Of a DNA stretch of 34,814 nt, positions 4,662 through 27,775 are shown in pieces. Within the stretch, counting starts at the first letter, position 1, and the number at the start of each line of letters is the position of its first letter. The stretch lies in the UHGV virus genome UHGV-0076394; one strand, written 5' to 3'. The notes beneath the pieces were generated by a model, which worked only from the letters and a program-made list of their open reading frames with translations, ran no database searches and was not told the DNA's origin. A program made the translations under genes and the position numbers. Source of the stretch: a virus.

Positions 4662-4888
4662 TGGCTGATGCAATGGATCTCGTACAGCAGCGCGTTGAAG
4701 AAGAACGCCAACGCCATATCCGTGCTGCCCGTGCCAAAACGCCGGGCGTGTCCCGCGTGCTTTGCATTGAGTGTGAAGCGCCAATTCCGCCAGCACGCCG
4801 CCGTGCCATTCCGGGTGTGCAGCTTTGCATTACCTGTCAGGAAATCGCAGAGCTGAAAGGCAAACATTACAACGGAGGTGCTGTATGA
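4661..4888 (+). CDS. TraR/DksA-family C4 zinc-finger protein
   Basis: 75 aa with CIECEAPIP...CITCQ (CxxC-N17-CxxC) characteristic of the DksA/TraR zinc finger; common just upstream of gene A in P2-like phages. Confidence 0.7.
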   Translation: MADAMDLVQQRVEEERQRHIRAARAKTPGVSRVLCIECEAPIPPARRRAIPGVQLCITCQEIAELKGKHYNGGAV

Positions 4889-5742
4889 GCACCATCCTGA
4901 AATGGGCGGGAAATAAAACTGCCATAATGTCCGAACTGAAAAAACATCTTCCTGCTGGCCCGCGACTGGTTGAACCTTTCGCGGGTTCCTGTGCTGTGAT
5001 GATGGAGACGGATTATCCCAGCTATCTGGTTGCGGATATTAATCCTGATTTAATCAACCTCTATAAAAAGGTTGCCGCTGATTGTGAATCGTTTATATCT
5101 CGCGCCAGAGTTTTATTTGAGATCGCAAACAGGGAGGTGGCTTATTACAACATAAGGCAGGAGTTTAATTACTCAACTGAAATTACTGATTTCATGAGAG
5201 CGGTATATTTCCTGTATCTCAATCGTCACGGTTACCGTGGTTTATGTCGCTATAACAAGAGCGGGCATTTCAACATTCCCTACGGTAATTATAAAAATCC
5301 GTATTTCCCTGAAAAAGAAATTCGCGCATTTGCAGAAAAGGCCCAGCGAGCAACGTTTATCTGCGCCAGCTTTGATGAAACGCTGGCGATGTTGAAGGCG
5401 GGGGATGTGGTGTATTGCGATCCGCCGTATGACGGTACGTTTTCCGGCTATCACACTGACGGCTTCACTGAAGATGACCAGTATCACCTGGCATCTGTTC
5501 TTGAACATCGGTCATCAGAAGGACATCCGGTCATTGTTTCTAACAGTGACACATCCCTGATCCGTTCGCTGTATCGCAATTTTACTCACCACTACATCAA
5601 GGCAAAACGCAGCATCGGTGTGGCAGCTGGCGAGGGTAAATCAGCAACAGAAATCATTGCTGTTTCCGGGCCGCGCTGCTGGGTGGGATTTGATTATTCG
5701 CGTGGCGTGGATAGTTCTGCCGTGTACGGAGTACGTGCATGA
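4885..5742 (+). CDS. dam: DNA adenine methyltransferase (Dam-like, N6-adenine, D12 class)
   Basis: Start at the internal ATG 4885 (GGAGG Shine-Dalgarno; ATGA overlap with the upstream stop); N-terminal LKWAGNK, AdoMet-binding EPFAGS and catalytic DPPY motifs. Confidence 0.85.
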
Positions 5743-8153
5743 GTCATGCCGATATGAACAACTGCTGCGGCTTTAACGAAGCTGCCGCATCGTTCTCATG
5801 GAACAGCCCGAAAAAGGCCATTAACCCTTATCTGGACCCGGTGGAAGTTGCGCCGGTTTCTACGCTTTCAAACCTGATCACTCTGTACGCTGCCGATAAC
5901 GAGCAGGAACAGCTGCGCCGTGAGGCGCTGAGTGATCAGGTTTGGGAGCGTTATTTCTTTAATGAATCCCGTGATCCTGTCCAGCGCGAAATGGAACAGG
6001 ATAAGCTCATTAGTCGGGCAAAGCTGGCGCATGAGCAGCAGCGTTTTAATCCGGATATGGTCATTCTGGCGGACGTCAACGCCCAGCCTTCCCATATCAG
6101 CAAGCCGCTGATGCAACGTATTGAATACTTCAGCAGCCTGGGCAGGCCAAAGGCTTATTCCCGCTATTTACGTGAGACGATTAAGCCATGTCTGGAACGA
6201 CTGGAGCATGTACGCGACAGTCAGCTATCTGCATCTTTTCGCTTTATGGCAAGCCATGAAGGGCTGGACGGCCTGCTGATCCTGCCTGAAATGAGTCAGG
6301 ATCAGGTGAAACGCCTGTCCACCCTGGTAGCTGCGCATATGAGTATGTGCCTTGATGCCGCTTGTGGCGATTTGTATGCCACCGATGACGTTAAGCCAGA
6401 AGAAATCCGCAATACATGGGAAAGGGTGGCAGCGGAAACCCTGCGTCTGGATGTCATCCCGCCTGCGTTTGAGCAACTCCGTCGGAAAAGAAACCGCCGT
6501 AAACCCGTGCCCTATGAACTCATTCCGGGTTCGCTGGCGCGTATGTTGTGCGCCGACTGGTGGTATCGGAAATTATGGAAGATGCGTTGCGAATGGCGGG
6601 AAGAGCAGTTGCGTGCAGTCTGCCTTGTCAGCAAAAAAGCATCTCCTTATGTCAGCTATGAAGCCGTGATGCATAAACGTGAGCAGCGCCGTAAGTCGCT
6701 GGAGTTTTTCCGTTCTCATGAACTGGTGAACGAAGACGGCGACACGCTGGACATGGAGGATGTGGTAAACGCCAGCAGCAGCAACCCAGCGCATCGCCGC
6801 AATGAGATGATGGCCTGTGTTAAAGGTCTGGAGCTTATCGCGGAAATGCGCGGTGACTGCGCCGTTTTCTACACCATCACCTGTCCGTCACGTTTCCATT
6901 CCACGCTAAATAACGGCAGGCCCAACCCAACCTGGACAAATGCGACGGTAAGACAAAGCAGTGATTATCTGGTCGGCATGTTTGCTGCATTTCGTAAGGC
7001 GATGCACAAAGCCGGATTGCGGTGGTATGGCGTGCGGGTGGCTGAGCCGCATCATGACGGTACAGTTCACTGGCACCTGTTGTGTTTTATGCGCAAAAAA
7101 GACCGCCGCACCATCACTGCATTACTGCGTAAGTTTGCCATCCGTGAAGACCGCGAGGAGCTGGGCAATAACACTGGGCCGCGCTTTAAGTCTGAGTTGA
7201 TTAACCCGCGCAAAGGTACGCCAACAAGCTACATCGCGAAATACATCAGTAAGAACATTGACGGGCGTGGTCTGGCTGGCGAGATCAGCAAGGAAACGGG
7301 GAAATCCCTGCGTGATAATGCTGAATACGTTAATGCCTGGGCGTCTCTGCATCGTGTTCAGCAATTCCGCTTCTTTGGCATTCCGGGGCGTCAGGCTTAC
7401 CGTGAACTGCGATTGCTGGCTGGTCAGGCGGCAAGGCAACAGGGGGACAAAAAAGCAGGTGCGCCGGTACTGGATAACCCGCGCCTTGATGCCATTCTGG
7501 CTGCTGCTGATGCTGGTTGTTTTGCCACCTACATCATGAAGCAGGGTGGCGTACTGGTTCCCCGCAAATATCACCTCATCAGAACTGCTTATGAAATCAA
7601 CGAAGAGCCGACCGCCTATGGCGATCACGGCATTCGTATTTATGGCATCTGGTCACCTATTGCAGAGGGCAAGATCTGCACTCATGCCGTGAAGTGGAAA
7701 ATGGTTCGTAAGGCCGTTGACGTTCAGGAGGCGGCAGCCGACCAGGGCGCTTGCGCCCCTTGGACTCGTGGCAATAACTGTCCCCTTGCTGAAAATTTGT
7801 ACCAACAAGGGAAAGACAAATCAGCTGATGGGGATACCAGAACGGATATCACCCGTATGGATGACAAGGAGTTGCACGATTACCTGCACAGTATGAACAA
7901 AAAAGAACGCCGGGAACTGGCTGCAAGGTTACGCCTGGTGAAACCGAAACGGCGTAGAGACTACAAACAGCGAATTACAGACCATCAACGACAGCAGCTC
8001 GTCTATGAACTGAAGTCCAGAGGATTTGATGGCAGCGAGAAAGAGGTCGATTTACTCCTTCGCGGCGGCAGCATTCCGTCAGGAGCAGGCCTGCGTATTT
8101 TCTATCGGAACCAGCGTTTGCAGGAAGATGATAAGTGGCGGAACCTGTATTAA
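5739..8153 (+). CDS. A: Replication initiation endonuclease (P2 gpA / 186 A family, rolling-circle initiator)
   Basis: 804 aa; ATGA overlap with dam; HxH metal-binding motif (VHWHLLCF) and Tyr-containing segment (YIAKYISK) typical of gpA-type nickases. Confidence 0.85.
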
Positions 8154-8247
8154 TTACGCGGATTAACAATTCGTGCTCTTAATAATACCAGGCATATCAG
8201 GCTGATGAACGTAAAAAAACGTTTTACATCAGTAAGATTATTATATA

Positions 8248-8263
8248 CTGTAAATATAAACAG
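8248..8263. promoter_or_regulatory. LexA box (SOS operator) CTGTAAATATAAACAG
   Basis: Exact CTGT-N8-ACAG with an AT-rich centre, about 45-60 nt upstream of the small ORF at 8307, overlapping -10-like hexamers. Confidence 0.7.
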
Positions 8264-8306
8264 TGGTTATGTATACAGTATTGCTTGTGGTGTCATAGGA
8301 GGAAAG

Positions 8307-8495
8307 ATGCAGGACTATTTTTTGGAGTCTTTGAAGCTCCAACGCATTGATTTTTTTCTTAAGCTTGTAGCGGCTAGTGAGTGTAGTGATGAAGAGAAGG
8401 GGCTGGCCCTGCAGTGGGTTTCTGAACTGACAGATGAACTCATGGCAAAAATCAGAAGCCACGAATACAACCGCTCAATGGATGTCATCAGCTGA
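8307..8495 (+). CDS. Small SOS-regulated protein (62 aa), possible Tum-like antirepressor module
   Basis: ATG at 8307 preceded by AGGAGGAAAG Shine-Dalgarno; directly downstream of the LexA box; in the slot that holds tum in 186. Confidence 0.45.
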   Translation: MQDYFLESLKLQRIDFFLKLVAASECSDEEKGLALQWVSELTDELMAKIRSHEYNRSMDVIS

Positions 8496-8505
8496 GGGGA
8501 CTTTT

Positions 8506-8739
8506 ATGCGCATTGAAATAATGATCGATAAAGAGCAGAAGATTAGCCAGTCTACCCTAGACGCCCTTGAATCAGAGCTTTACCGCAATCTGCGCCCCCT
8601 GTATCCCAAAACGGTAATTCGTATCCGTAAAGGTAGCTCTAACGGTGTGGAACTGACCGGACTGCAACTGGACGAAGAAAGGAAACAAGTGATGAAAATT
8701 ATGCAGAAGGTGTGGGAAGACGACAGCTGGCTGCATTAA
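8506..8739 (+). CDS. dinI: DinI-family protein (77 aa)
   Basis: ATG at 8506 with GAGGGGA Shine-Dalgarno; MRIEIMIDKEQ...LESELYRNL...WEDDSWL matches the DinI family pattern (MRIE...acidic C-terminus with W); co-transcribed with the LexA-controlled ORF. Confidence 0.7.
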   Translation: MRIEIMIDKEQKISQSTLDALESELYRNLRPLYPKTVIRIRKGSSNGVELTGLQLDEERKQVMKIMQKVWEDDSWLH

Positions 8740-9123
8740 GAAACGTTGCTGGCGTCTGAACTTGCTTCTGGCGTCAGCAAGGTTGAACAACGAGCTATGC
8801 GAGGCGTTAGCCATCTGATCAAAAGACATCAAATATCATATTGTATATCGTGGTCAAACGCTGGAAACAATCATTCCCGATCAGAGGGGCTTCTTTCAAT
8901 GTCCAAAAGAGTGAGATAGAGGATACAGGATGGGAAGAGCTTTTGATTAATTATCGTCCAAGTTTTTCAAAAGCTTCTTATCTGGCGGTCGATACATGAT
9001 TTACTGTTGGATATGGTATTTAAAATTAATCTTTACACTGTGGTATATGCAGAATAGGATATTATCAATACAATCAAACTGTTTTCATACGGTTATTAAT
9101 ATTGCAATGTTATAGGTAATGTC

Positions 9124-10242
9124 ATGTATCTTTTCAAGTATTACCGTCCGGACTTCTTCTTCGAGAAAGCTATTCGTTATAATGAATTATATTTTTCCGC
9201 TCCTGCGCAATTGAATGATCCCAATGATCTCAATATAGATTATCGCTTCGATAATAAATTGAAATTATGGGATATTTTATTGCGTTCTCCTTGCGATAAA
9301 TCCTATAAAAATTTGAGTCACATATTGGATTTGAGTAATTTGAAAATACATAAGGGATTGAATCGTATTTTTAGAGGAAAAAAAATAAAAAGTAGCATTG
9401 AGTCATTAGATAGCCTGTTTGACTCACACGTTGATGAGATACGTAAGATCATAGATGATGGTTTACTACCTATCAATGTGATTAATTCTGCTATTTATGG
9501 AAATATTCCTGAACCACGCCAATATTTGGTTTCACTTTGCGAGAACAGTATCAAAGAAAGGTTGTATAGGAAAATAGTTCCTGCAGTATTCAGTGTGTCA
9601 TTTTCAGCTAATGCGTTAGATCGTATGATGTGGGCGCATTATGCTGCTGGCTTTAGTGGTTGTGTTGTGATTTATGAAACGCAGGATTTTAATATTGATG
9701 GTATACCCTATACTGGAATGAAGCTAAGAGAAAATTTATTTTCATCAGATAAATTTAATTTTCCAGTTAAGCCAATAAAATATAGTAATCAGGCTAAAGA
9801 GGTTTCACTTCTAGACCCAAGCGCAAATGTTGCAGAGTTATTTTTAACTAAAAATAGATTTTGGAGATATGAAGCTGAATATCGAATGTTTATTCCGGAG
9901 GCAAATGCAGGAATAGGGAGTGAGCGGCATGTTCAAAGACGCGTAAATCGAAATATTGGACATATTTTTCATCATGATGCTAATGTTGTTAAAGGGATCA
10001 TTTTTGGTCCTAGAATGTGTGAAATGAAAAAAGAAAGCATATGGAATTGTATCAAGTCAAATATGGAGAATTCAAATTCAACAATATGTTATTTTTTTGA
10101 CTCTGAGTTATCAGCATCAGGAAAGATTACTATTTCAAAAGGGCAACGAGCGGAAAAAATGAAAAATTTCACTTTGTTCAGGAACAAGTTAAGTCAGACG
10201 GAAATGGCTAAAGTTTTGAAGGAAATTGGCATTACGAACTAA
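9124..10242 (+). CDS. DUF2971-like protein (372 aa), AT-rich accessory gene
   Basis: N-terminus MYLFKYYR...NELYFSAPAQLNDPNDL and internal MWAHYA / FWRYEAEYR motifs as recalled for DUF2971; strongly AT-rich compared with flanking phage genes. Confidence 0.6.
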   Translation: MYLFKYYRPDFFFEKAIRYNELYFSAPAQLNDPNDLNIDYRFDNKLKLWDILLRSPCDKSYKNLSHILDLSNLKIHKGLNRIFRGKKIKSSIESLDSLFDSHVDEIRKIIDDGLLPINVINSAIYGNIPEPRQYLVSLCENSIKERLYRKIVPAVFSVSFSANALDRMMWAHYAAGFSGCVVIYETQDFNIDGIPYTGMKLRENLFSSDKFNFPVKPIKYSNQAKEVSLLDPSANVAELFLTKNRFWRYEAEYRMFIPEANAGIGSERHVQRRVNRNIGHIFHHDANVVKGIIFGPRMCEMKKESIWNCIKSNMENSNSTICYFFDSELSASGKITISKGQRAEKMKNFTLFRNKLSQTEMAKVLKEIGITN

Positions 10243-10308
10243 CCTAACAACAGTGCATGCCTATGCTGCCTGAATTTGCATGACCGTTTGAGGATCGTTT
10301 TTGCTAAG

Positions 10309-10332
10309 GCCCGCCAGAACTGGCGGGCTTTT
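10309..10332 (+). terminator. Rho-independent terminator GCCCGCCAG-aa-CTGGCGGGC-TTTT
   Basis: Perfect 9-bp GC-rich stem, 2-nt loop, followed by TTTT; 67 nt downstream of the DUF2971-like gene stop. Confidence 0.7.
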
Positions 10333-10377
10333 GCGTGGATCAGGCACCTGCATGAAAACCACTACACAAAGCGGGTA

Positions 10378-10396
10378 GGCGTGGCGGGGATACGAG
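10378..10396. other. Candidate cos (cohesive end) core GGCGTGGCGGGGATACGAG
   Basis: First 13 nt equal the start of the 19-nt cohesive end recalled for phage 186 (GGCGTGGCGGGGA...); lies in a GC-rich backbone-like segment between the two AT-rich cargo genes; not verified. Confidence 0.3.
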
Positions 10397-10472
10397 CGCG
10401 CGGAAGCAGTTTCACATATAATTCGATTGGTGTAATCTGAGCTACAACTTAAGAAAAGAGGATGAGTTAATC

Positions 10473-12212
10473 ATGGAATTGCACGCATATACTAGAACCA
10501 TATCAGAATTACTTTCTGTTAATAGAAAATATGTTGTTCCAAGATTTCAACGCGAATATTCTTGGGTAAAAGAACAAATTAATGAGCTTTGGTACGATGT
10601 AATATCTAATATAAAATTAGAGAGTGATTTCACATATTCTAATAATGAGTATTTTATTGGTTCTTTAGTTTTGGTTGGAGATGAAACAGGAAGGGAGATG
10701 CAAATAGTTGATGGTCAGCAACGACTTACAACTCTTACAATTTTTCTTTCCGTTTTATGCGAGGCGTTCAAATCAAACAATCAATCAGATTTAGCGTCTG
10801 CCCTATTTGAAAATTATATTGAAGGTCGTGATGATGATGGTAAGAAATTCTTTAAATTAATAAATGAAACGCCTAAACCTTTTTTTCAGAAAAATATCCA
10901 GCATATTAATAAGGCAGATGACATCCCACAGACACAAGAAGAGCGAAATCTCTTGTCAGCATATAAAGAAATTACATCGTTAGCCTCAAAGGAAAAGTTG
11001 GAAAAATATTTTTCAGTAGAAATTAATACTGAGGATAATTATTCCAGTGTATTAAAGGCAATTAGGGATCAGATTTTAAGATTCCTAAAGATAATTTTCA
11101 TTACTGTTAATGAAGAGGACGAGGCGTATACAATATTTGAAACATTAAATGCTAGAGGGATGAATTTAAGTTTTGTAGATTTAATCAAAAATAAATTATT
11201 TAAAGCGTTAAATGACCCACATCCAAATGATGATGCAAAAGATAATTGGAAGGCTATACGTACTACTTTAATGCAAAGAAATGGTGTAGGGACTTTTGAG
11301 AATTACATGAGGCACTGGTGGGTGTCGAAGTATGCTTATGTGAGCAATGAAAATCTTTATAAATCCTTTATTGGCAAATGGCGTAAGGGGGAAATTAATC
11401 CGGCAACCTTTATTGACGAATTGAAACAGGATGCCGAATTGTATGTACGCTTGTCATCTCCTTTGGAGAGTGATTATCCACAAATGGAAGACAAACAGTT
11501 ATTTCATTCGTTGAATGCAATTAGGCTATTTGGTATAACACAGTGTAGACCTTTTTTATTAGCCTTACTAAAGGCGAAGCAGCAAAAGAGATTACGTCAA
11601 TGTGATCTTTTAAAAGCAGTTAAATATATTGAAAATTTTCATTTTGTATTTAATGCGGTATGTTCATTAAGACCGTCAGGGATAGAAGGAGCATATTCTA
11701 AGGCCGCAAGATCTATAAATTCACCAAATGCTACAAAAGCAACTAATGGAACAACAATTGACCAGTTATGTATGTTGTTGAGTAATCGCAAGCCGGAAAT
11801 TTCTGTATTTACTGAACATTTTAGGGATATATTGTTTACTGATGACAACTCCAAACAAAAAAGATTAGTTCAATATATTATAAATAAATTTGAAATGGCC
11901 CGTCATAATGGAGATGAGTATCGTCCTAATTCTATCTCTTTAGAACATGTAATGCCTCAAAGTGCTGGCGACGATAAGGAAATAGGAATGGTTGGAAATA
12001 TAATCCCCCTGTCAAAAGAACTTAATGAGCAAGCTGGTGATAAATCATTGGCACAAAAGCTTTCTATCTATTCTCAATCGGAGTTTAGATTGACAGAAGA
12101 GTTTGTTAGTGAACTTGAAACCATTTACCATAATGAATGGAATCTCCAGTCTATTATTCAGAAGACGGATAGGATGGCTGGTGAGGCTTATATGATTATT
12201 TGGAGTCATTAA
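10473..12212 (+). CDS. DUF262/DUF1524 two-domain nuclease (GmrSD-like type IV restriction family)
   Basis: N-terminal DUF262 signatures VPRFQREYSW and DGQQRLTTL; C-terminal DUF1524-like His-Me segment SLEHVMPQS...GNIIPLSKELN; AT-rich. Confidence 0.75.
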   Translation: MELHAYTRTISELLSVNRKYVVPRFQREYSWVKEQINELWYDVISNIKLESDFTYSNNEYFIGSLVLVGDETGREMQIVDGQQRLTTLTIFLSVLCEAFKSNNQSDLASALFENYIEGRDDDGKKFFKLINETPKPFFQKNIQHINKADDIPQTQEERNLLSAYKEITSLASKEKLEKYFSVEINTEDNYSSVLKAIRDQILRFLKIIFITVNEEDEAYTIFETLNARGMNLSFVDLIKNKLFKALNDPHPNDDAKDNWKAIRTTLMQRNGVGTFENYMRHWWVSKYAYVSNENLYKSFIGKWRKGEINPATFIDELKQDAELYVRLSSPLESDYPQMEDKQLFHSLNAIRLFGITQCRPFLLALLKAKQQKRLRQCDLLKAVKYIENFHFVFNAVCSLRPSGIEGAYSKAARSINSPNATKATNGTTIDQLCMLLSNRKPEISVFTEHFRDILFTDDNSKQKRLVQYIINKFEMARHNGDEYRPNSISLEHVMPQSAGDDKEIGMVGNIIPLSKELNEQAGDKSLAQKLSIYSQSEFRLTEEFVSELETIYHNEWNLQSIIQKTDRMAGEAYMIIWSH

Positions 12213-12221
12213 TAGTTGAAA

Positions 12222-12248
12222 GCCCTATTATTATATCAATGATAGGGC
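12222..12248. terminator. Hairpin GCCCTAT-N13-ATAGGGC between convergent genes (possible bidirectional terminator)
   Basis: 7-bp inverted repeat in the 45-bp gap between the nuclease stop and the portal stop, flanked by A/T runs. Confidence 0.35.
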
Positions 12249-12257
12249 AATTTAATT

Positions 12258-13289
12258 CTACTCTAACACGTAATTACTAAATGAAATTATCGGTTTCTTA
12301 ATCCATTTGTTTAATTCGTGTATGCGTTTTTGTAAGGGAATTAACTCGTTTCTTACAAAAACCTTACTAGCCTTCTCCACATCCCCAAACCCCCCGACAT
12401 TACTAGGCATTATCCCCATCATTTGTGGCGGCACGCGGTGCGCAGCCATCATGTCATCACGGCTCACGTTTTTGATATTCAGAAACTCATCCTTCGCTGC
12501 GACTTCTGACAACGGGATGATCTGAAGCCCGTCCTTTTTGCCGTTAGGCGAGTACATAAACAGGTTGCGGAAGTTACCTGGGCCTTTGGCGCTTTTCATC
12601 GCATTACGGAGGTTGTTCACATCCTCCTGGTTCTGCGCGGCATCGGTCATGTACATGATGAAGCCAGCATGACTACCGTTAATGTAATACTTCCGGCGGA
12701 ACAGCGTGGCGGACTCGTTGAGCAAAGCGGATGGGATGGCAGAAAGATAGCCGGGCAGGCCGTAGATCTCCTGATTAATATCCGGTTCCATCAGATGAAA
12801 AATGCTGCCTTTTGTGAACTGATACGGCTGGGTTGTCATACCGTATTGCACAAACCAGTAGGTATCCAGGTCTAACCCGCGTCGGGTGTATTTCGCCAGG
12901 GCAGGTTCAAGGGCGATCACTTCACCGAAGCGGTTCGTGCGTTTCTCCAGGTAGGCGTTACCAAATACCAGATAGTCCTGCACAAAACGTGAAAACGCCT
13001 GCTGGCTGAGCAGCGGATGAGGGATGTAGGTGCTGGTCAGTATGTTGCACTTTACGGCAATCGGTGAGCTGTGGTGCACGGCGGCGCGAAAGGTTCGCGC
13101 CAGCCCGTCGAAACTCACTGGTGGCTCATACCAGCGGTCCATCTGTACGCATTCCACATAATCCAGCAGTTCTCGGCGGTCCAGAACAGGAACGGGATCG
13201 CCGAAGCTGAATGCTTCGGCTGAAGTCTGGTTTTTATGCTGGATCTGTTTCGTCGCCGCAGCGCGGTTTTTCTTACTCTTTCCCATCAA
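12258..13289 (-). CDS. Q: Portal protein (P2 gpQ family)
   Basis: 343 aa, leftward, immediately downstream of the large terminase with overlapping stop/start; conserved order and size for P2 Q. Confidence 0.85.
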   Translation of the reverse strand: MMGKSKKNRAAATKQIQHKNQTSAEAFSFGDPVPVLDRRELLDYVECVQMDRWYEPPVSFDGLARTFRAAVHHSSPIAVKCNILTSTYIPHPLLSQQAFSRFVQDYLVFGNAYLEKRTNRFGEVIALEPALAKYTRRGLDLDTYWFVQYGMTTQPYQFTKGSIFHLMEPDINQEIYGLPGYLSAIPSALLNESATLFRRKYYINGSHAGFIMYMTDAAQNQEDVNNLRNAMKSAKGPGNFRNLFMYSPNGKKDGLQIIPLSEVAAKDEFLNIKNVSRDDMMAAHRVPPQMMGIMPSNVGGFGDVEKASKVFVRNELIPLQKRIHELNKWIKKPIISFSNYVLE

Positions 13290-15052
13290 AAAATCTCCAC
13301 AATATTGCTGGTATTGGCGGACTCGCCCTGCAGCGGTTCGTTAAACAGTGCGTGCATTGTTGCCCAGGCCAGATCGGCATGGCTGGCTTCTTCGCTGCGG
13401 CTGGCTTCATAGGTCGGGCGGTTGCCGCTGGCGGTGGTGGCGCGGCGGATTGCCATAAATGACTGCGCTATGTCGGTGTGTCCGGCGTCAAACTCCAGAC
13501 GGCGGTGGCTGATAATGTCATAGGCCTTGAGTACCAGGGCGTTTTTAACATTGGGGTTGTAGACAAACTCCCGGACGGCAGGAAAGAACGCTTTCACGTT
13601 CTCATAAACTCCGTGACCGACACCTGTCGAGTCGATGCCGATATAAGTCACGTTGTACTGTTCGGTCAGTTTTTTGATGGCGTCAGCCTGGGCGCGAAAG
13701 TCCATCCCGCGCCACTGGTGACGCTCAAGAATGCGAAACTTGCCGCCCGGCACGGCTGGCGGTGCCACCACCACGCATCCGGCGCTGTCGCCGTTCTGCG
13801 TACCTTTGGCCGGGTCATAACCGATCCACACTTCGCGCCAGCCAAACGGGCGCAGTGCCAGTGCATGAAAGTCGGTCCAGACTTCCCAGCTGTCCACCAT
13901 GCACGCCTGCAGCTCGCTGAGCGGGAACACGGACGCGAGATCGTCCACGAACTCGCACATCAGCAGGTTTTGGTATTCGTCCGGGCTGTACTCCATGCGT
14001 AGCTGGTCGAGGTCGAACAGGTTACAGCCGCCGCGCACCGCATCTTCCACGGTGACTATCTGGCGGTATTGCCCGTCAGCGCACAGCAGGCCGGGGGCCA
14101 GATTGTTGTGGGACAGGTCGATGTCCACCTTATCGGCTTTGTTGCGTCCACGGTTGAACAGCGCACCGGACCAGAACGGATAAGCACTGTGGGTCAGGCT
14201 GGATGGCGTGGAAAAATAGGTTTGTCGCCATTTTTTGTGAATAGCCATACCGGAAGCCACTTTGCGCAGCTCCTGGAATTTCGGTATCCAGAAATATTCA
14301 TCCAGATACAGGTTGCCGTGGTAACTCTGGGCCGTGCGGGCATTGGTGCCGAGGAAGTAAAGCGTGGCCCCGTTAGGAAGCACCATCGGATCGCCTTTCA
14401 GCTCCACCTCCACTTCTTTGGCGAAGTCGATGATGTACTGCTTAAAGACGTGGGCCTGTGCCTTACTGGCGGAAAGGAAAATCTGGTTACGCCCGGTAAG
14501 CAGGGCGTCAATCAGGGCTTCACGGGCAAAGTAAAAGGTCGCGCCGATCTGGCGTGACTTCAGCAGGTTGCGGATGCGGTTGGTTTTTCCGGCTTCCCAC
14601 CAGTGGCGCTGGTAGTTGAACATGGAGGAATGGAAGATTTCTTCCAGCTTCTCAATCTGCTCATCGGTGAAAACATTCTTTTCCGGCTGACGGCGTGGGC
14701 CTTTGTTGCGGTTGGCGACGTTAGGGTTTAAGTCGGCTTCGTTGCCGCCATTGTTAAACTTGCCGATCCGCGCGTGGCGCTCCGACTGGCGCGCCAGCAG
14801 GTCAATCTCTTTGAAATCTTTCCCTTCTTTGTGCTCCTTCATGATGAGCTGGCAGTAGCGTGCGGTGGTGGTGAGCTGCATCTGATCCAGCGGCCCATAG
14901 TCACCCCACTTGTCGCGTTTTTTCCAGCTGTGAACGGTTGCAACTTTCTCGCCCAGCATTTCAGCTATGCGGGCTACGCGGTATCCCTGAAAGTACAGCA
15001 GCATGGCCTGCCGACGGGGATCGAGATCTGCGGGTGTCAGTGTGGTGTTCAT
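13286..15052 (-). CDS. P: Terminase large (ATPase) subunit (P2 gpP family)
   Basis: 588 aa; Walker A-like SRQIGATFY; divergent from the O N M L operon as in P2. Confidence 0.85.
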   Translation of the reverse strand: MNTTLTPADLDPRRQAMLLYFQGYRVARIAEMLGEKVATVHSWKKRDKWGDYGPLDQMQLTTTARYCQLIMKEHKEGKDFKEIDLLARQSERHARIGKFNNGGNEADLNPNVANRNKGPRRQPEKNVFTDEQIEKLEEIFHSSMFNYQRHWWEAGKTNRIRNLLKSRQIGATFYFAREALIDALLTGRNQIFLSASKAQAHVFKQYIIDFAKEVEVELKGDPMVLPNGATLYFLGTNARTAQSYHGNLYLDEYFWIPKFQELRKVASGMAIHKKWRQTYFSTPSSLTHSAYPFWSGALFNRGRNKADKVDIDLSHNNLAPGLLCADGQYRQIVTVEDAVRGGCNLFDLDQLRMEYSPDEYQNLLMCEFVDDLASVFPLSELQACMVDSWEVWTDFHALALRPFGWREVWIGYDPAKGTQNGDSAGCVVVAPPAVPGGKFRILERHQWRGMDFRAQADAIKKLTEQYNVTYIGIDSTGVGHGVYENVKAFFPAVREFVYNPNVKNALVLKAYDIISHRRLEFDAGHTDIAQSFMAIRRATTASGNRPTYEASRSEEASHADLAWATMHALFNEPLQGESANTSNIVEIF

Positions 15053-20563: not shown

Positions 20564-21002
20564 ACTGCAGAAGGTGGACGACTGGCTGAGTGCCTTGCTG
20601 GCGAATCTGGAGCCAGCCGCAAGAAGCCGCATGATGCGCCAGCTGGCGCAGGAACTGCGCCGGACACAGCAGCAGAACATCAGGATGCAGCGCAATCCAG
20701 ATGGCAGCAGTTATGAGCCGCGACGGGTAACAGCACGCAGCAAAAAGGGGCGCATCAAACGTCAGATGTTTACAAAGCTGCGCACCACAAAATACCTGAA
20801 AACTGCCGCCAGCGCCGATTCTGCCAGCGTGCAGTTTGAAGGTAAGGTGCAGCGCATTGCCCGCGTTCATCACTACGGCCTGCGTGATCGCATCAGTCGA
20901 AGAGGACCGGAGGTCCGTTACGCAGAGCGTCGTCTCCTAGGCGTAAATGATGATGTGGAAACTGTCATTCAGGATGCTTTGCTAAATTGGTTACAGAGAT
21001 AA
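20556..21002 (+). CDS. S: Tail completion / virion morphogenesis protein (P2 gpS family)
   Basis: 148 aa; GTG start overlapping the R stop; conserved position. Confidence 0.75.
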   Translation: MAELQKVDDWLSALLANLEPAARSRMMRQLAQELRRTQQQNIRMQRNPDGSSYEPRRVTARSKKGRIKRQMFTKLRTTKYLKTAASADSASVQFEGKVQRIARVHHYGLRDRISRRGPEVRYAERRLLGVNDDVETVIQDALLNWLQR

Positions 21003-21028
21003 ATAAAACCACATTTATAAAATTTAGT

Positions 21029-21895
21029 TTACTTTTTACTGATAAATGGATTCCTATCAATCCATGAGTCCCAGTTTATATAATTGTCATCAAATCCTAT
21101 GAATTTCATTAGTACAAGTGGCACCAGTAAATTCAAATTTGATGAGTAATCTTGAATTTCAATTTTGCCATCTGAGTTTTTTTCATCAAGATAGGCAATG
21201 TATTTACCATTGTGGAACAGCGAGTGACGGAGTTTGCAGTAATGCATAATGTTTCTTTGAGCTAATGTATGTCCTGTTTTTTCGACATTAAAACCATATT
21301 CTTTTAAAACCTGAGTGATTATTTGTGGTGTTTTGGCAGGGGAGTAGTCATTTTTAATAAATCTGCAAAGTGCTTCTAGTGCCGAGAATAATAAATAATA
21401 TCTGACGTCGATATAATTTATTGAGTCGCGGAAAGCTAGCATTGATTTAAAAAATGATGTTCTAAAGGCATCTTGTTTTAGCATGGCTTTACTATTTAGT
21501 TTTTCCATGGCTAAGCAAATAAAATTTTCTCGGCTGTTTGGTGCAAAATAATCTTCCATGATGATAATGCCCGCACCCTTATCTCTTTTTTTGTCAAGCT
21601 TTTTGGGTAGAGATGGTTTGAAATTGAAAGGGGTTTCATCATTTTCAAGTTCTCCTGAAATGATTACATTTTTTTGTTCAATAAAACTAAGAACTGCTTG
21701 TAAATCAAAAATAAGCTGCTGTTGAGTGGCGTAGTTATTCGAGTTTGGTTTGAAAAAACCAGTGAGGATGTACCTATCATTAGCCCAGCCATTTTTTTTT
21801 AACTCACTCCATGAACTGAAAATAGGAGTTAACTCACCACCGTCAAATGTGATTTTTTTAGTGAAATTAAATCCATAAATTGCGATTTGTGTCAT
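21029..21895 (-). CDS. AT-rich accessory protein (289 aa) with R-x4-H motif; candidate HEPN/Abi-like defence protein
   Basis: Minus-strand gene inserted between S and V; ATG at 21895 preferred over 21943; contains CKLRHSLFHNG (R-x4-H); markedly AT-rich. Confidence 0.55.
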   Translation of the reverse strand: MTQIAIYGFNFTKKITFDGGELTPIFSSWSELKKNGWANDRYILTGFFKPNSNNYATQQQLIFDLQAVLSFIEQKNVIISGELENDETPFNFKPSLPKKLDKKRDKGAGIIIMEDYFAPNSRENFICLAMEKLNSKAMLKQDAFRTSFFKSMLAFRDSINYIDVRYYLLFSALEALCRFIKNDYSPAKTPQIITQVLKEYGFNVEKTGHTLAQRNIMHYCKLRHSLFHNGKYIAYLDEKNSDGKIEIQDYSSNLNLLVPLVLMKFIGFDDNYINWDSWIDRNPFISKK

Positions 21896-21924
21896 CTTAA
21901 ATACCTTAGAAATTGTTTCTCTTT

Positions 21925-21942
21925 TGTATGGTTCTCCATACA
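21925..21942. promoter_or_regulatory. TGT-N12-ACA dyad (TGTATGG-ttct-CCATACA), candidate late promoter pV activator site
   Basis: Perfect 7-bp inverted repeat conforming to TGT-N12-ACA about 50-65 nt upstream of the V start codon, in the short region shared with the divergent cargo gene. Confidence 0.45.
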
Positions 21943-21990
21943 TACGCTCTGTATTACATCACTCTACCCGGTTGTGCAAGGATCGCTCTC

Positions 21991-27162: not shown

Positions 27163-27217
27163 TGCAGAGATTACGGCTAACTGGCATCATCCCAGATTTT
27201 TATTCAGGGGATTGATC

Positions 27218-27775
27218 ATGCTTATTGGCTATGTACGCGTGTCAACAAATGACCAGAACACCGATTTGCAACGTAATGCACTGAACTGCGCGGGATGTGA
27301 GCGAATTTTTGAGGATAAAATCAGTGGCACTAAGTCCGACAGACCGGGGCTAAAAAAACTGCTCAGGACACTATCGGCAGGAGACACGCTGGTCGTCTGG
27401 AAGCTGGACAGGTTGGGGCGCAGTATGCGGCATCTTGTTACGCTGATAGAAGAGTTGCGCCAGCGTGGCGTGAATTTCCGAAGCCTGACTGACAGTATTG
27501 ATACCAGTACCCCAATGGGCCGTTTCTTTTTTCATGTCATGGGTGCCCTGGCTGAAATGGAACGCGAACTGATAGTTGAACGCACTATGGCAGGGCTGGC
27601 TGCAGCTCGTGCCAAAGGCAGAGTAGGTGGACGCCGTCCTAAGTTGACCACCGAACAGTGGGCACAGATTGGACGTTTACTCGAGGCCGGAGAATCAAGA
27701 CAGCGTATTGCACTGATTTTTGACGTGGGCGTTTCTACCATTTATAGAAAATTTCCGGCGAATAAGAGCAATTAA
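27218..27775 (+). CDS. Serine DNA invertase (Gin/Hin/Cin/Pin family)
   Basis: N-terminus MLIGYVRVSTNDQNTDLQRNAL with the catalytic Ser in the YVRVS motif; C-terminal HTH; about 186 aa. Confidence 0.9.
   Translation: MLIGYVRVSTNDQNTDLQRNALNCAGCERIFEDKISGTKSDRPGLKKLLRTLSAGDTLVVWKLDRLGRSMRHLVTLIEELRQRGVNFRSLTDSIDTSTPMGRFFFHVMGALAEMERELIVERTMAGLAAARAKGRVGGRRPKLTTEQWAQIGRLLEAGESRQRIALIFDVGVSTIYRKFPANKSN

Follow-up and report, generated by a model that had tools for sequence, protein, structure and literature searches.

A GmrSD-family nuclease gene beside the portal gene

The 34,814-nucleotide stretch analysed here (UHGV virus genome UHGV-0076394, called the window below) is an E. coli prophage of the P2/186 type (Peduoviridae). 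The gene under study occupies 10473-12212 on the + strand, reads from an ATG start to a TAA stop and encodes a protein of 579 residues, which we place in the HEC-06 clade of the GmrSD nuclease family on the combined evidence of Pfam, PADLOC, homologues, AlphaFold and Foldseek, and selection. It is the only open reading frame in its cassette. An AT-rich leader (10404-10472, +), delimited by its divergence from related prophages, precedes the gene. The portal gene (12258-13289, - strand) converges on it from the other side and ends 45 bp away. A hairpin at 12222-12248, found by terminator scan and folding, sits in this gap at the position of the tQ/tW terminator of P2/186 and is a probable bidirectional terminator; its 11-bp stem folds with -16.5 kcal/mol (z = -4.5) on the + strand and -10.9 kcal/mol (z = -2.3) on the - strand. 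E. coli strains 61 and 64 share the locus at 100% identity, and ST95-32 shares it at 99.9%. RefSeq labels the protein a ‘DUF262 domain-containing protein’, and in PHROGs it has a full-length match to phrog_21165, a family of unknown function.

The reading frame cannot have arisen by chance, since its homologues number more than 5,700 and identity is still about 50% in cyanobacteria, and since comparison with an 82%-identical Klebsiella copy gives a low proportion of nonsynonymous differences (pN = 0.10) against a saturated proportion of synonymous ones (pS = 0.77). The substitution pattern indicates that the gene is under strong purifying selection. Hosts of the clade include prophages of E. 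coli, Klebsiella, Leclercia, Enterobacter and Hafnia. Deposited phage genomes yielded no close homologue, the best match having 26% identity; as judged from these searches, the gene is known from prophages only.

We defined the GmrSD family by the pairing of Pfam PF03235 and PF07510 (Machnicka et al. 2015), and both domains are present. The profile GmrSD_N (PF03235, formerly DUF262) matches over its full length (1-199 of 199) with E = 4e-38 and 132 bits against a cut-off of 33.2, locating an N-terminal ParB-like nucleoside triphosphatase (NTPase) domain at residues 10-243 (10500-11201, +). GmrSD_C (PF07510, formerly DUF1524) matches with E = 5e-14 and 52.8 bits against a cut-off of 23, locating a C-terminal His-Me finger nuclease domain at residues 443-569 (11799-12179, +). 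The DGQQR motif of the first domain (residues 80-84; 10710-10724, +) and the key residues of the second, E491-H492 (11943-11948), N509 (11997-11999) and N518 (12024-12026), all on the + strand, are invariant at every position (D80, G81, Q82, Q83, R84, E491, H492, N509 and N518) among 32 homologues. The same holds for the positions of two further DUF262 motifs, FQREYSW (25-31) and FETLNARG (222-229). NCBIfam returned only a sub-threshold match to a DGQHR domain (22 bits, cut-off 58.9).

The AlphaFold model (mean predicted local distance difference test score, pLDDT, 85.5) shows an alpha/beta domain at the N-terminus, then a helical linker and, at 489-521, a beta-beta-alpha element made up of a strand at 489-492, a second strand at 510-513 and a helix at 515-521. 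When this model was compared with the PDB by Foldseek, all eight matches with E ≤ 0.001 were to DndI, SspE or BrxU, their E-values running from 2e-17 to 1e-5. DndI (PDB 9JFL) is the closest in fold (E 2e-17, global template-modelling (TM) score 0.66-0.68 over the full length), followed by SspE (E 1e-14, TM 0.42) and BrxU (E 6e-6, TM 0.31); it is also the best solved match by sequence (phmmer 5e-16, N-terminal domain). Against the PADLOC models the protein matches HEC-06 (PDLC04154) at 1.1e-90, with residues 3-577 aligned to positions 7-564 of the 569-position profile; two more HEC-06 models score 4e-89 and 5e-88. The mREase_IV model of classical Type IV enzymes matches the N-terminal domain only (1e-14). 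Taken together, the sequence and the model derived from it identify the product as an intact single-gene GmrSD-family nuclease.

The initial annotation of this DNA had proposed a ‘GmrSD, BrxU-like’ nuclease with DUF262 and DUF1524 domains, and had quoted three motifs in support. The position on the + strand is borne out exactly, the motifs VPRFQREYSW, DGQQR(LTTL) and SLEHVMPQS lie at residues 22-31, 80-84 and 489-497, and both Pfam profiles score above their curated cut-offs. Of the family label, GmrSD stands on the Pfam and fold evidence; ‘BrxU-like’ does not. We rejected the BrxU subfamily on three grounds: phmmer found no BrxU match at E ≤ 0.1, the RLFDS nucleotide-binding motif is missing (the aligned region reads ELWYDVISN), and the fold match is at the level of a domain, with the low TM score given above.

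The cos site and the two cargo slots

A second AT-rich gene lies upstream, separated from the GmrSD gene by a 230-bp intergenic gap. It encodes a 372-residue DUF2971-like protein (9124-10242, +), sits outside the GmrSD cassette and occupies the right-end slot, the position of orf97 in 186 and of tin/old in P2. The DUF2971 call is marginal in Pfam (21.7 bits, cut-off 22); the protein also matches PADLOC PDC-S31 (1e-23) and phrog_1762. The GC content of each gene is 0.333, that of the backbone about 0.53-0.57, and that of the core of the gap (10243-10403, 161 bp) 0.565. Within this core, 10252-10403 is a P2-family backbone segment, the cos (cohesive-end) region, conserved in P2-like phages: across four genera (Escherichia, Klebsiella, Salmonella and Yersinia), 75 records of P2-like phages match it at 87-91% identity, and the matches end at about 10402-10408.

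Two elements can be recognised in the segment. The hairpin at 10306-10335 (+), an 11-bp GC-rich stem followed by UUUU, has a folding energy of -23.4 kcal/mol (z = -3.3) and aligns with the right-end region of 186 that holds t95b, which terminates the SOS operon tum-orf97. From folding and this alignment we take it to be the t95b counterpart, an intrinsic terminator of the upstream DinI/DUF2971 unit; the terminator scan missed it and the stretch was folded separately. Downstream, at 10378-10396 (+), lies the predicted 19-nucleotide cohesive end, the cos cleavage site, GGCGTGGCGGGGATACGAG. It agrees with the annotated cos of 186 at 15 of 19 positions and with that of P2 at 14 of 19; no other site in the window exceeds 13 of 19. 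The flanks align as well, on the left over 28 nucleotides (GCATGAAAACC...AAGCGGG) and on the right over CGCGCG, and the 19-mer is identical in the related E. coli and Klebsiella prophages compared (L001-L004, L009 and L012). An Rfam search of 8100-12500 gave nothing at E ≤ 0.1, which leaves the spacer and the leader without any known RNA element.

By homology, then, the spacer would consist of a terminator and the cos packaging site, an essential cis element. If the spacer contains cos, the DUF2971-like gene belongs to the right-end slot and the GmrSD gene to a separate left-end slot between cos and portal, which would put it at the far left of the packaged genome as defined by the predicted cos. 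In P2 and 186 the interval from cos to the portal gene spans only about 170 bp, with the tQ/tW terminator as its sole content. These phages carry cargo on the right-end side only (tin/old in P2, orf97 in 186); the GmrSD gene fills the left-end slot that is normally empty in them.

The extent of the exchanged unit can be read from related prophages, which diverge about 7 bp past the cos 19-mer, near 10404, and reconverge only inside the portal gene. The unit thus runs from about 10404 to about 12350 and comprises the leader, the GmrSD gene, the bidirectional hairpin and the portal C-terminal tail. Its right recombination boundary is marked, by GC content and covariation with cargo, by the AT-rich 3′ end of the portal gene (12258-12350, -; the last ~30 codons), whose GC content is 0.301 against 0.527 in the remainder of the gene. 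This tail varies with the cargo between prophages and is identical in a prophage with the same cargo (L001). On these comparisons the portal C-terminal tail effectively belongs to the exchangeable cassette and appears to tolerate much variation.

Of 5,426 complete E. coli genomes, four carry the GmrSD cassette. Its partner across cos is the DUF2971 gene in three of these copies and an LA2681-type HEPN protein in the fourth, that of DSM 103246. The DUF2971 cassette is far commoner in E. coli and is found, at 98-99.9% identity, opposite other cos-portal cargo: a DUF4062 protein, a 380-residue hypothetical protein or a 778-residue AAA ATPase. Since each cassette occurs with different partners, E. 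coli prophages combine the contents of the two slots independently. The earlier suggestion of two separately acquired cassettes in adjacent slots, parted by GC-rich backbone-like DNA, is upheld on both counts; what changes is the nature of the spacer, which is indeed backbone but can be refined to a t95b-like terminator plus cos, so that the slots are the two ends of the packaged genome.

The DSM 103246 copy (L001; NZ_CP019944, ~4823-7898) is a 99.9%-identical GmrSD gene split by the insertion sequence IS2 about 187 nucleotides past the start codon. The annotated 561-residue ‘DUF262’ coding sequence begins within the insertion sequence and is without the first ~60 residues, including FQREYSW. 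From its structure this copy is probably inactivated.

The clade is found as a solitary gene in seven unrelated contexts, with no methyltransferase, dnd or ssp partner in the cassette. Three are P2-like cos-portal slots, occupied by the E. coli window allele, by a second E. coli allele (54% identical) and by a Klebsiella member. Two are other prophage sites, namely the slot between CI and integrase in an Aeromonas P2-like prophage and the rep-nin region of Klebsiella lambdoid prophages, and two are chromosomal, in Pectobacterium and in one cyanobacterium. The clade thus rides on at least three different prophage slots. The Aeromonas member (L101/L102, 6001-7746) is 52% identical to the window protein and lies between the CI repressor and the integrase; its presence in a different slot shows that the same gene type uses several prophage hotspots.

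The lambdoid context merits separate description. The second E. coli P2-like allele (P0029) is 86% identical to a protein (P0037) widespread among the lambdoid prophages of Klebsiella pneumoniae. When one such prophage (L014, 5851-7937) is aligned with a P2-like relative (L012, 5848-7929), nucleotide identity is 76% and homology reaches beyond the gene, as it also does in L015-L017. The aligned stretch of L014 includes ~58 bp of the cos left flank, a degenerate cos, GGCGTGGCGGGGGTATGTG (16 of 19 positions), the leader and, from a portal gene of P2 type, the final 45 codons, now bearing an in-frame stop. On this alignment the whole unit of cos, GmrSD gene and portal stub was evidently transplanted from a P2-like to a lambdoid phage. 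The boundaries of the transplanted unit, cos and the portal 3′ end, are those inferred for the E. coli cassette.

The region between gpA and gpQ of E. coli P2-like prophages, described as ‘cos-proximal’, is a defence hotspot from which several systems have been validated (Rousset et al. 2022, PMC9122126). Table S5A of that work already lists DUF262/DUF1524 and DUF2971 arrangements, without assay (PMC9122126). The window locus corresponds to the published definition: it runs gpA, DinI, DUF2971, cos, GmrSD, portal, and its cargo is variable among prophages. It has in common with the hotspot a variable AT-rich locus between the replication and portal genes that carries diverse, partly validated defence. 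It differs in one respect, for PMC9122126 treats a single region ‘adjacent to cos’, whereas here cos lies inside the region and divides two slots. A cos-divided structure is not spelled out in the published accounts of the hotspot that we consulted. According to a 2026 preprint, P2 and P4 swap defence loci rapidly and exchange them with other mobile elements.

Relatives, expression and proposed function

One of the closest characterised counterparts is HEC-06, a validated single-gene GmrSD-like defence (Payne et al. 2024 preprint, 10.1101/2024.01.29.577857). The tested protein, WP_096851903.1 of E. coli MOD1-EC1687, also combines DUF262 (DGQQR), a helical linker and DUF1524 (EHxxP His-Me motif) in one gene. 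Each of the substitutions Q79A, R80A, E471A and H472A abolishes its defence (10.1101/2024.01.29.577857), and the four residues correspond to Q83, R84, E491 and H492 of the window protein. The two proteins are 27% identical over the first ~400 residues compared; at the C-terminus our comparison rests on the motif quoted by Payne et al. Their settings differ too, as the tested gene is embedded in an Hma system and the window gene lies in a prophage cos-portal slot. HEC-06 is without the RLFDS motif of BrxU, from which it also differs in phage range and predicted structure (10.1101/2024.01.29.577857). HEC-06 functions alone. A later study states that it blocks T4 and reports that a remote homologue from Bacteroides protects against T-even phages and spares the unmodified mutant T4-GT7.

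Three other relatives frame the comparison. DndI of Salmonella Cerro 87 (PDB 9JFL, PMC11662687) has 596 residues and hence the same length class, with the same domain layout, a DGQQR NTPase followed by an HNH-type nickase, at an overall identity of about 18-19%. Unlike the window protein, it is encoded in and dependent on a dndBCDE phosphorothioation cluster (PMC11662687). DndI nicks phosphorothioate-free DNA, is released from self DNA by its phosphorothioate-stimulated ATPase, and is toxic when phosphorothioate is absent (PMC11662687). Its phosphorothioate-sensing Tyr25 aligns to Phe25 of the window protein, a residue invariant in the clade; we regard this as weak evidence. Eco94GmrSD and the classical GmrSD enzymes likewise join the two Pfam domains, identically ordered, in one chain, again without a cognate methyltransferase (PMC4437046, PMC4619093), and Type IV restriction of glucosylated 5-hydroxymethylcytosine (glc-hmC) DNA, the action of these enzymes, is the mode presumed for the window protein; the relationship is, however, distant. 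BrxU (PDB 7P9K, PMC8565348), like the window protein, is of the GmrSD family, with DGQQR and a (D/E)H nuclease motif; it acts alone against phages with modified cytosines and is embedded in a BREX system (PMC8565348).

A sigma-70 scan of the 69-bp leader gave no canonical -35/-10 pair, and the regional count of sites was not above that of shuffled sequences. By eye, all alleles have TGn and a TA-rich hexamer ~35-45 nucleotides before the start codon, an arrangement that could be an extended -10 promoter; in the window the possible element is TGgTGTAAT at 10428-10436 (+), which we note with low confidence, as we do a ribosome-binding site AGAGGA at about 10456-10462 (+). Read-through past the terminator at 10306-10335 is a possible second route of expression. 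A LexA-box-like sequence, TACTGTAAATATAAACAGTG, at 8246-8265, upstream of a small open reading frame and the DinI/Tum-like gene, resembles p95 of 186. To judge by this box, the DUF2971 gene and, by read-through, perhaps the GmrSD gene could be SOS-responsive.

We consider it probable, though well short of certain, that this HEC-06-clade protein, carried as prophage cargo, acts alone as a Type IV enzyme and destroys modified incoming phage DNA. In such an enzyme the N-terminal ParB-like NTPase with its DGQQR motif would sense or license, the C-terminal His-Me finger nuclease (E491-H492...N509...N518) would cut, and the helical linker would lie between them. Expressed in the lysogen, it would destroy phage DNA with hypermodified bases, T-even-type 5-hydroxymethylcytosine (hmC) or glucosyl-hmC being the leading candidate; the unmodified DNA of host and prophage would be spared, and both would thereby be protected. 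The analysis establishes the gene and its domains, invariant catalytic residues, fold, family, solitary context, cos-flanked slot and independent exchange; we infer expression in the lysogen, antiphage activity, modification dependence and the choice of modification, with modified cytosine suggested as the target by analogy with the family. The proposal is favoured by the Pfam and PADLOC matches, the fold, the low pN, the T4 and T-even phenotypes published for HEC-06 and its distant homologue, by the presence and invariance of the residues equivalent to those required for HEC-06 defence, by the solitary context with no cognate methyltransferase, and by the position of the gene within the experimentally tested gpA-gpQ hotspot. 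Several observations pull the other way: the tested HEC-06 is only 27% identical, so the two may differ in substrate preference; among solved structures DndI, which restricts unmodified DNA, comes nearest in sequence as well as in fold; the leader scan found no canonical promoter upstream; the allele is rare (four of the 5,426 complete E. coli genomes); and the splitting of one of the four E. coli copies by IS2 could hint at a cost.

The distance from HEC-06 leaves some room, though we think it unlikely, for a defence nuclease that recognises another mark, such as 7-deazaguanine, 5-hydroxymethyluracil derivatives or modified adenine, or whose trigger is broad or of another kind. Members of the family differ greatly in specificity, from glc-hmC through 5-methylcytosine and hmC to phosphorothioate sensing, and the differences of HEC-06 from BrxU in phage range and predicted structure, together with the 27% identity to the tested HEC-06, point the same way; yet the only published phenotypes of the HEC-06 type concern T4 and other T-even phages. 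The likeness to DndI raises the different prospect of a DndI/SspE-like nickase that attacks unmodified DNA and is kept off the host by a mark such as phosphorothioate, which stimulates the NTPase. DndI is well ahead of BrxU as the best PDB match by sequence and fold, and shares the size and layout of the protein. We nevertheless hold this to be improbable: no dnd or ssp genes occur in the 34.8-kb window or beside the homologues examined, the host genomes being otherwise not scanned; a nuclease that is toxic without phosphorothioate would be ill-suited to a phage-borne gene crossing hosts when dndBCD is present in 568 of 31,478 genomes (<2%) (PMC11662687); and the substitution of Phe25 for Tyr25 counts weakly against it.

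That the gene has no part in defence, being an unexpressed or decaying passenger, a nuclease of the phage life cycle or an addiction module, would accord with the missing canonical promoter, the IS2-split copy and the rarity of the allele. We give this very little weight, and slightly less than the nickase, in view of the intact frame, the invariant catalytic residues and the strong purifying selection. The phage cycle does not require the gene, for P2 and 186 replicate and package with the slot empty; moreover, the locus is a validated defence hotspot, and members of the clade turn up alone as cargo in several prophage slots. A more daring reading can be formulated, that the cos-portal interval is a distinct cos-anchored slot whose cassettes of cos, gene and portal 3′ tail move even into lambdoid prophages and that, separately, the HEC-06/DndI-like clade might tell self from non-self by a mark other than cytosine hypermodification. 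We offer this as a long shot.

The prophage setting and what the locus means

The integrase gene lies at 691-1899 and is followed by a 186-type CI repressor and CII, which lie between it and a Dam-type (D12 class) adenine methyltransferase gene at 4825-5742, upstream of gene A. This methyltransferase belongs to the backbone and is present whichever cargo is carried. Replication gene A (gpA) is at 5739-8153 and the DinI/Tum-like gene at 8506-8739. Beyond the portal gene come the terminase gene (13286-15052, -) and the capsid and tail genes. A Hin/resolvase-type DNA invertase gene (27212-27775) adjoins the tail-fibre genes and probably switches tail fibres. We note a third AT-rich island at 21001-21950 of the window (GC ~0.32 against ~0.55). 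It holds an open reading frame for 304 residues (21029-21943, -) on the opposite strand between tail genes, which has a full-length match to phrog_4373 (3e-142; unknown function) and no Pfam or PADLOC match. The island may be a further cargo slot, possibly at what we presume to be the P2 orf30 position.

Both the gene type and the hotspot are known in kind, and the find is largely an ordinary one; the cos-divided slots and the transplant flanked by fossil cos and portal sequence are modest additions. For annotation, the gain is that a ‘DUF262 domain-containing protein’ becomes an HEC-06-clade GmrSD nuclease with predicted catalytic residues. For catalogues of defence hotspots, the ‘cos-proximal hotspot’ of P2 would become two slots parted by an essential cos, with recombination boundaries in cos and in the portal 3′ end. 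On the long-shot reading of a cos-anchored slot, should the transplanted cos copies still be cut by a P2-type terminase, P2-like helpers could package or mobilise foreign prophage or chromosomal DNA. The clade itself, about 50% conserved from enterobacterial prophages to cyanobacteria, would be a sensible choice for working out which substrates HEC-06-type enzymes accept.

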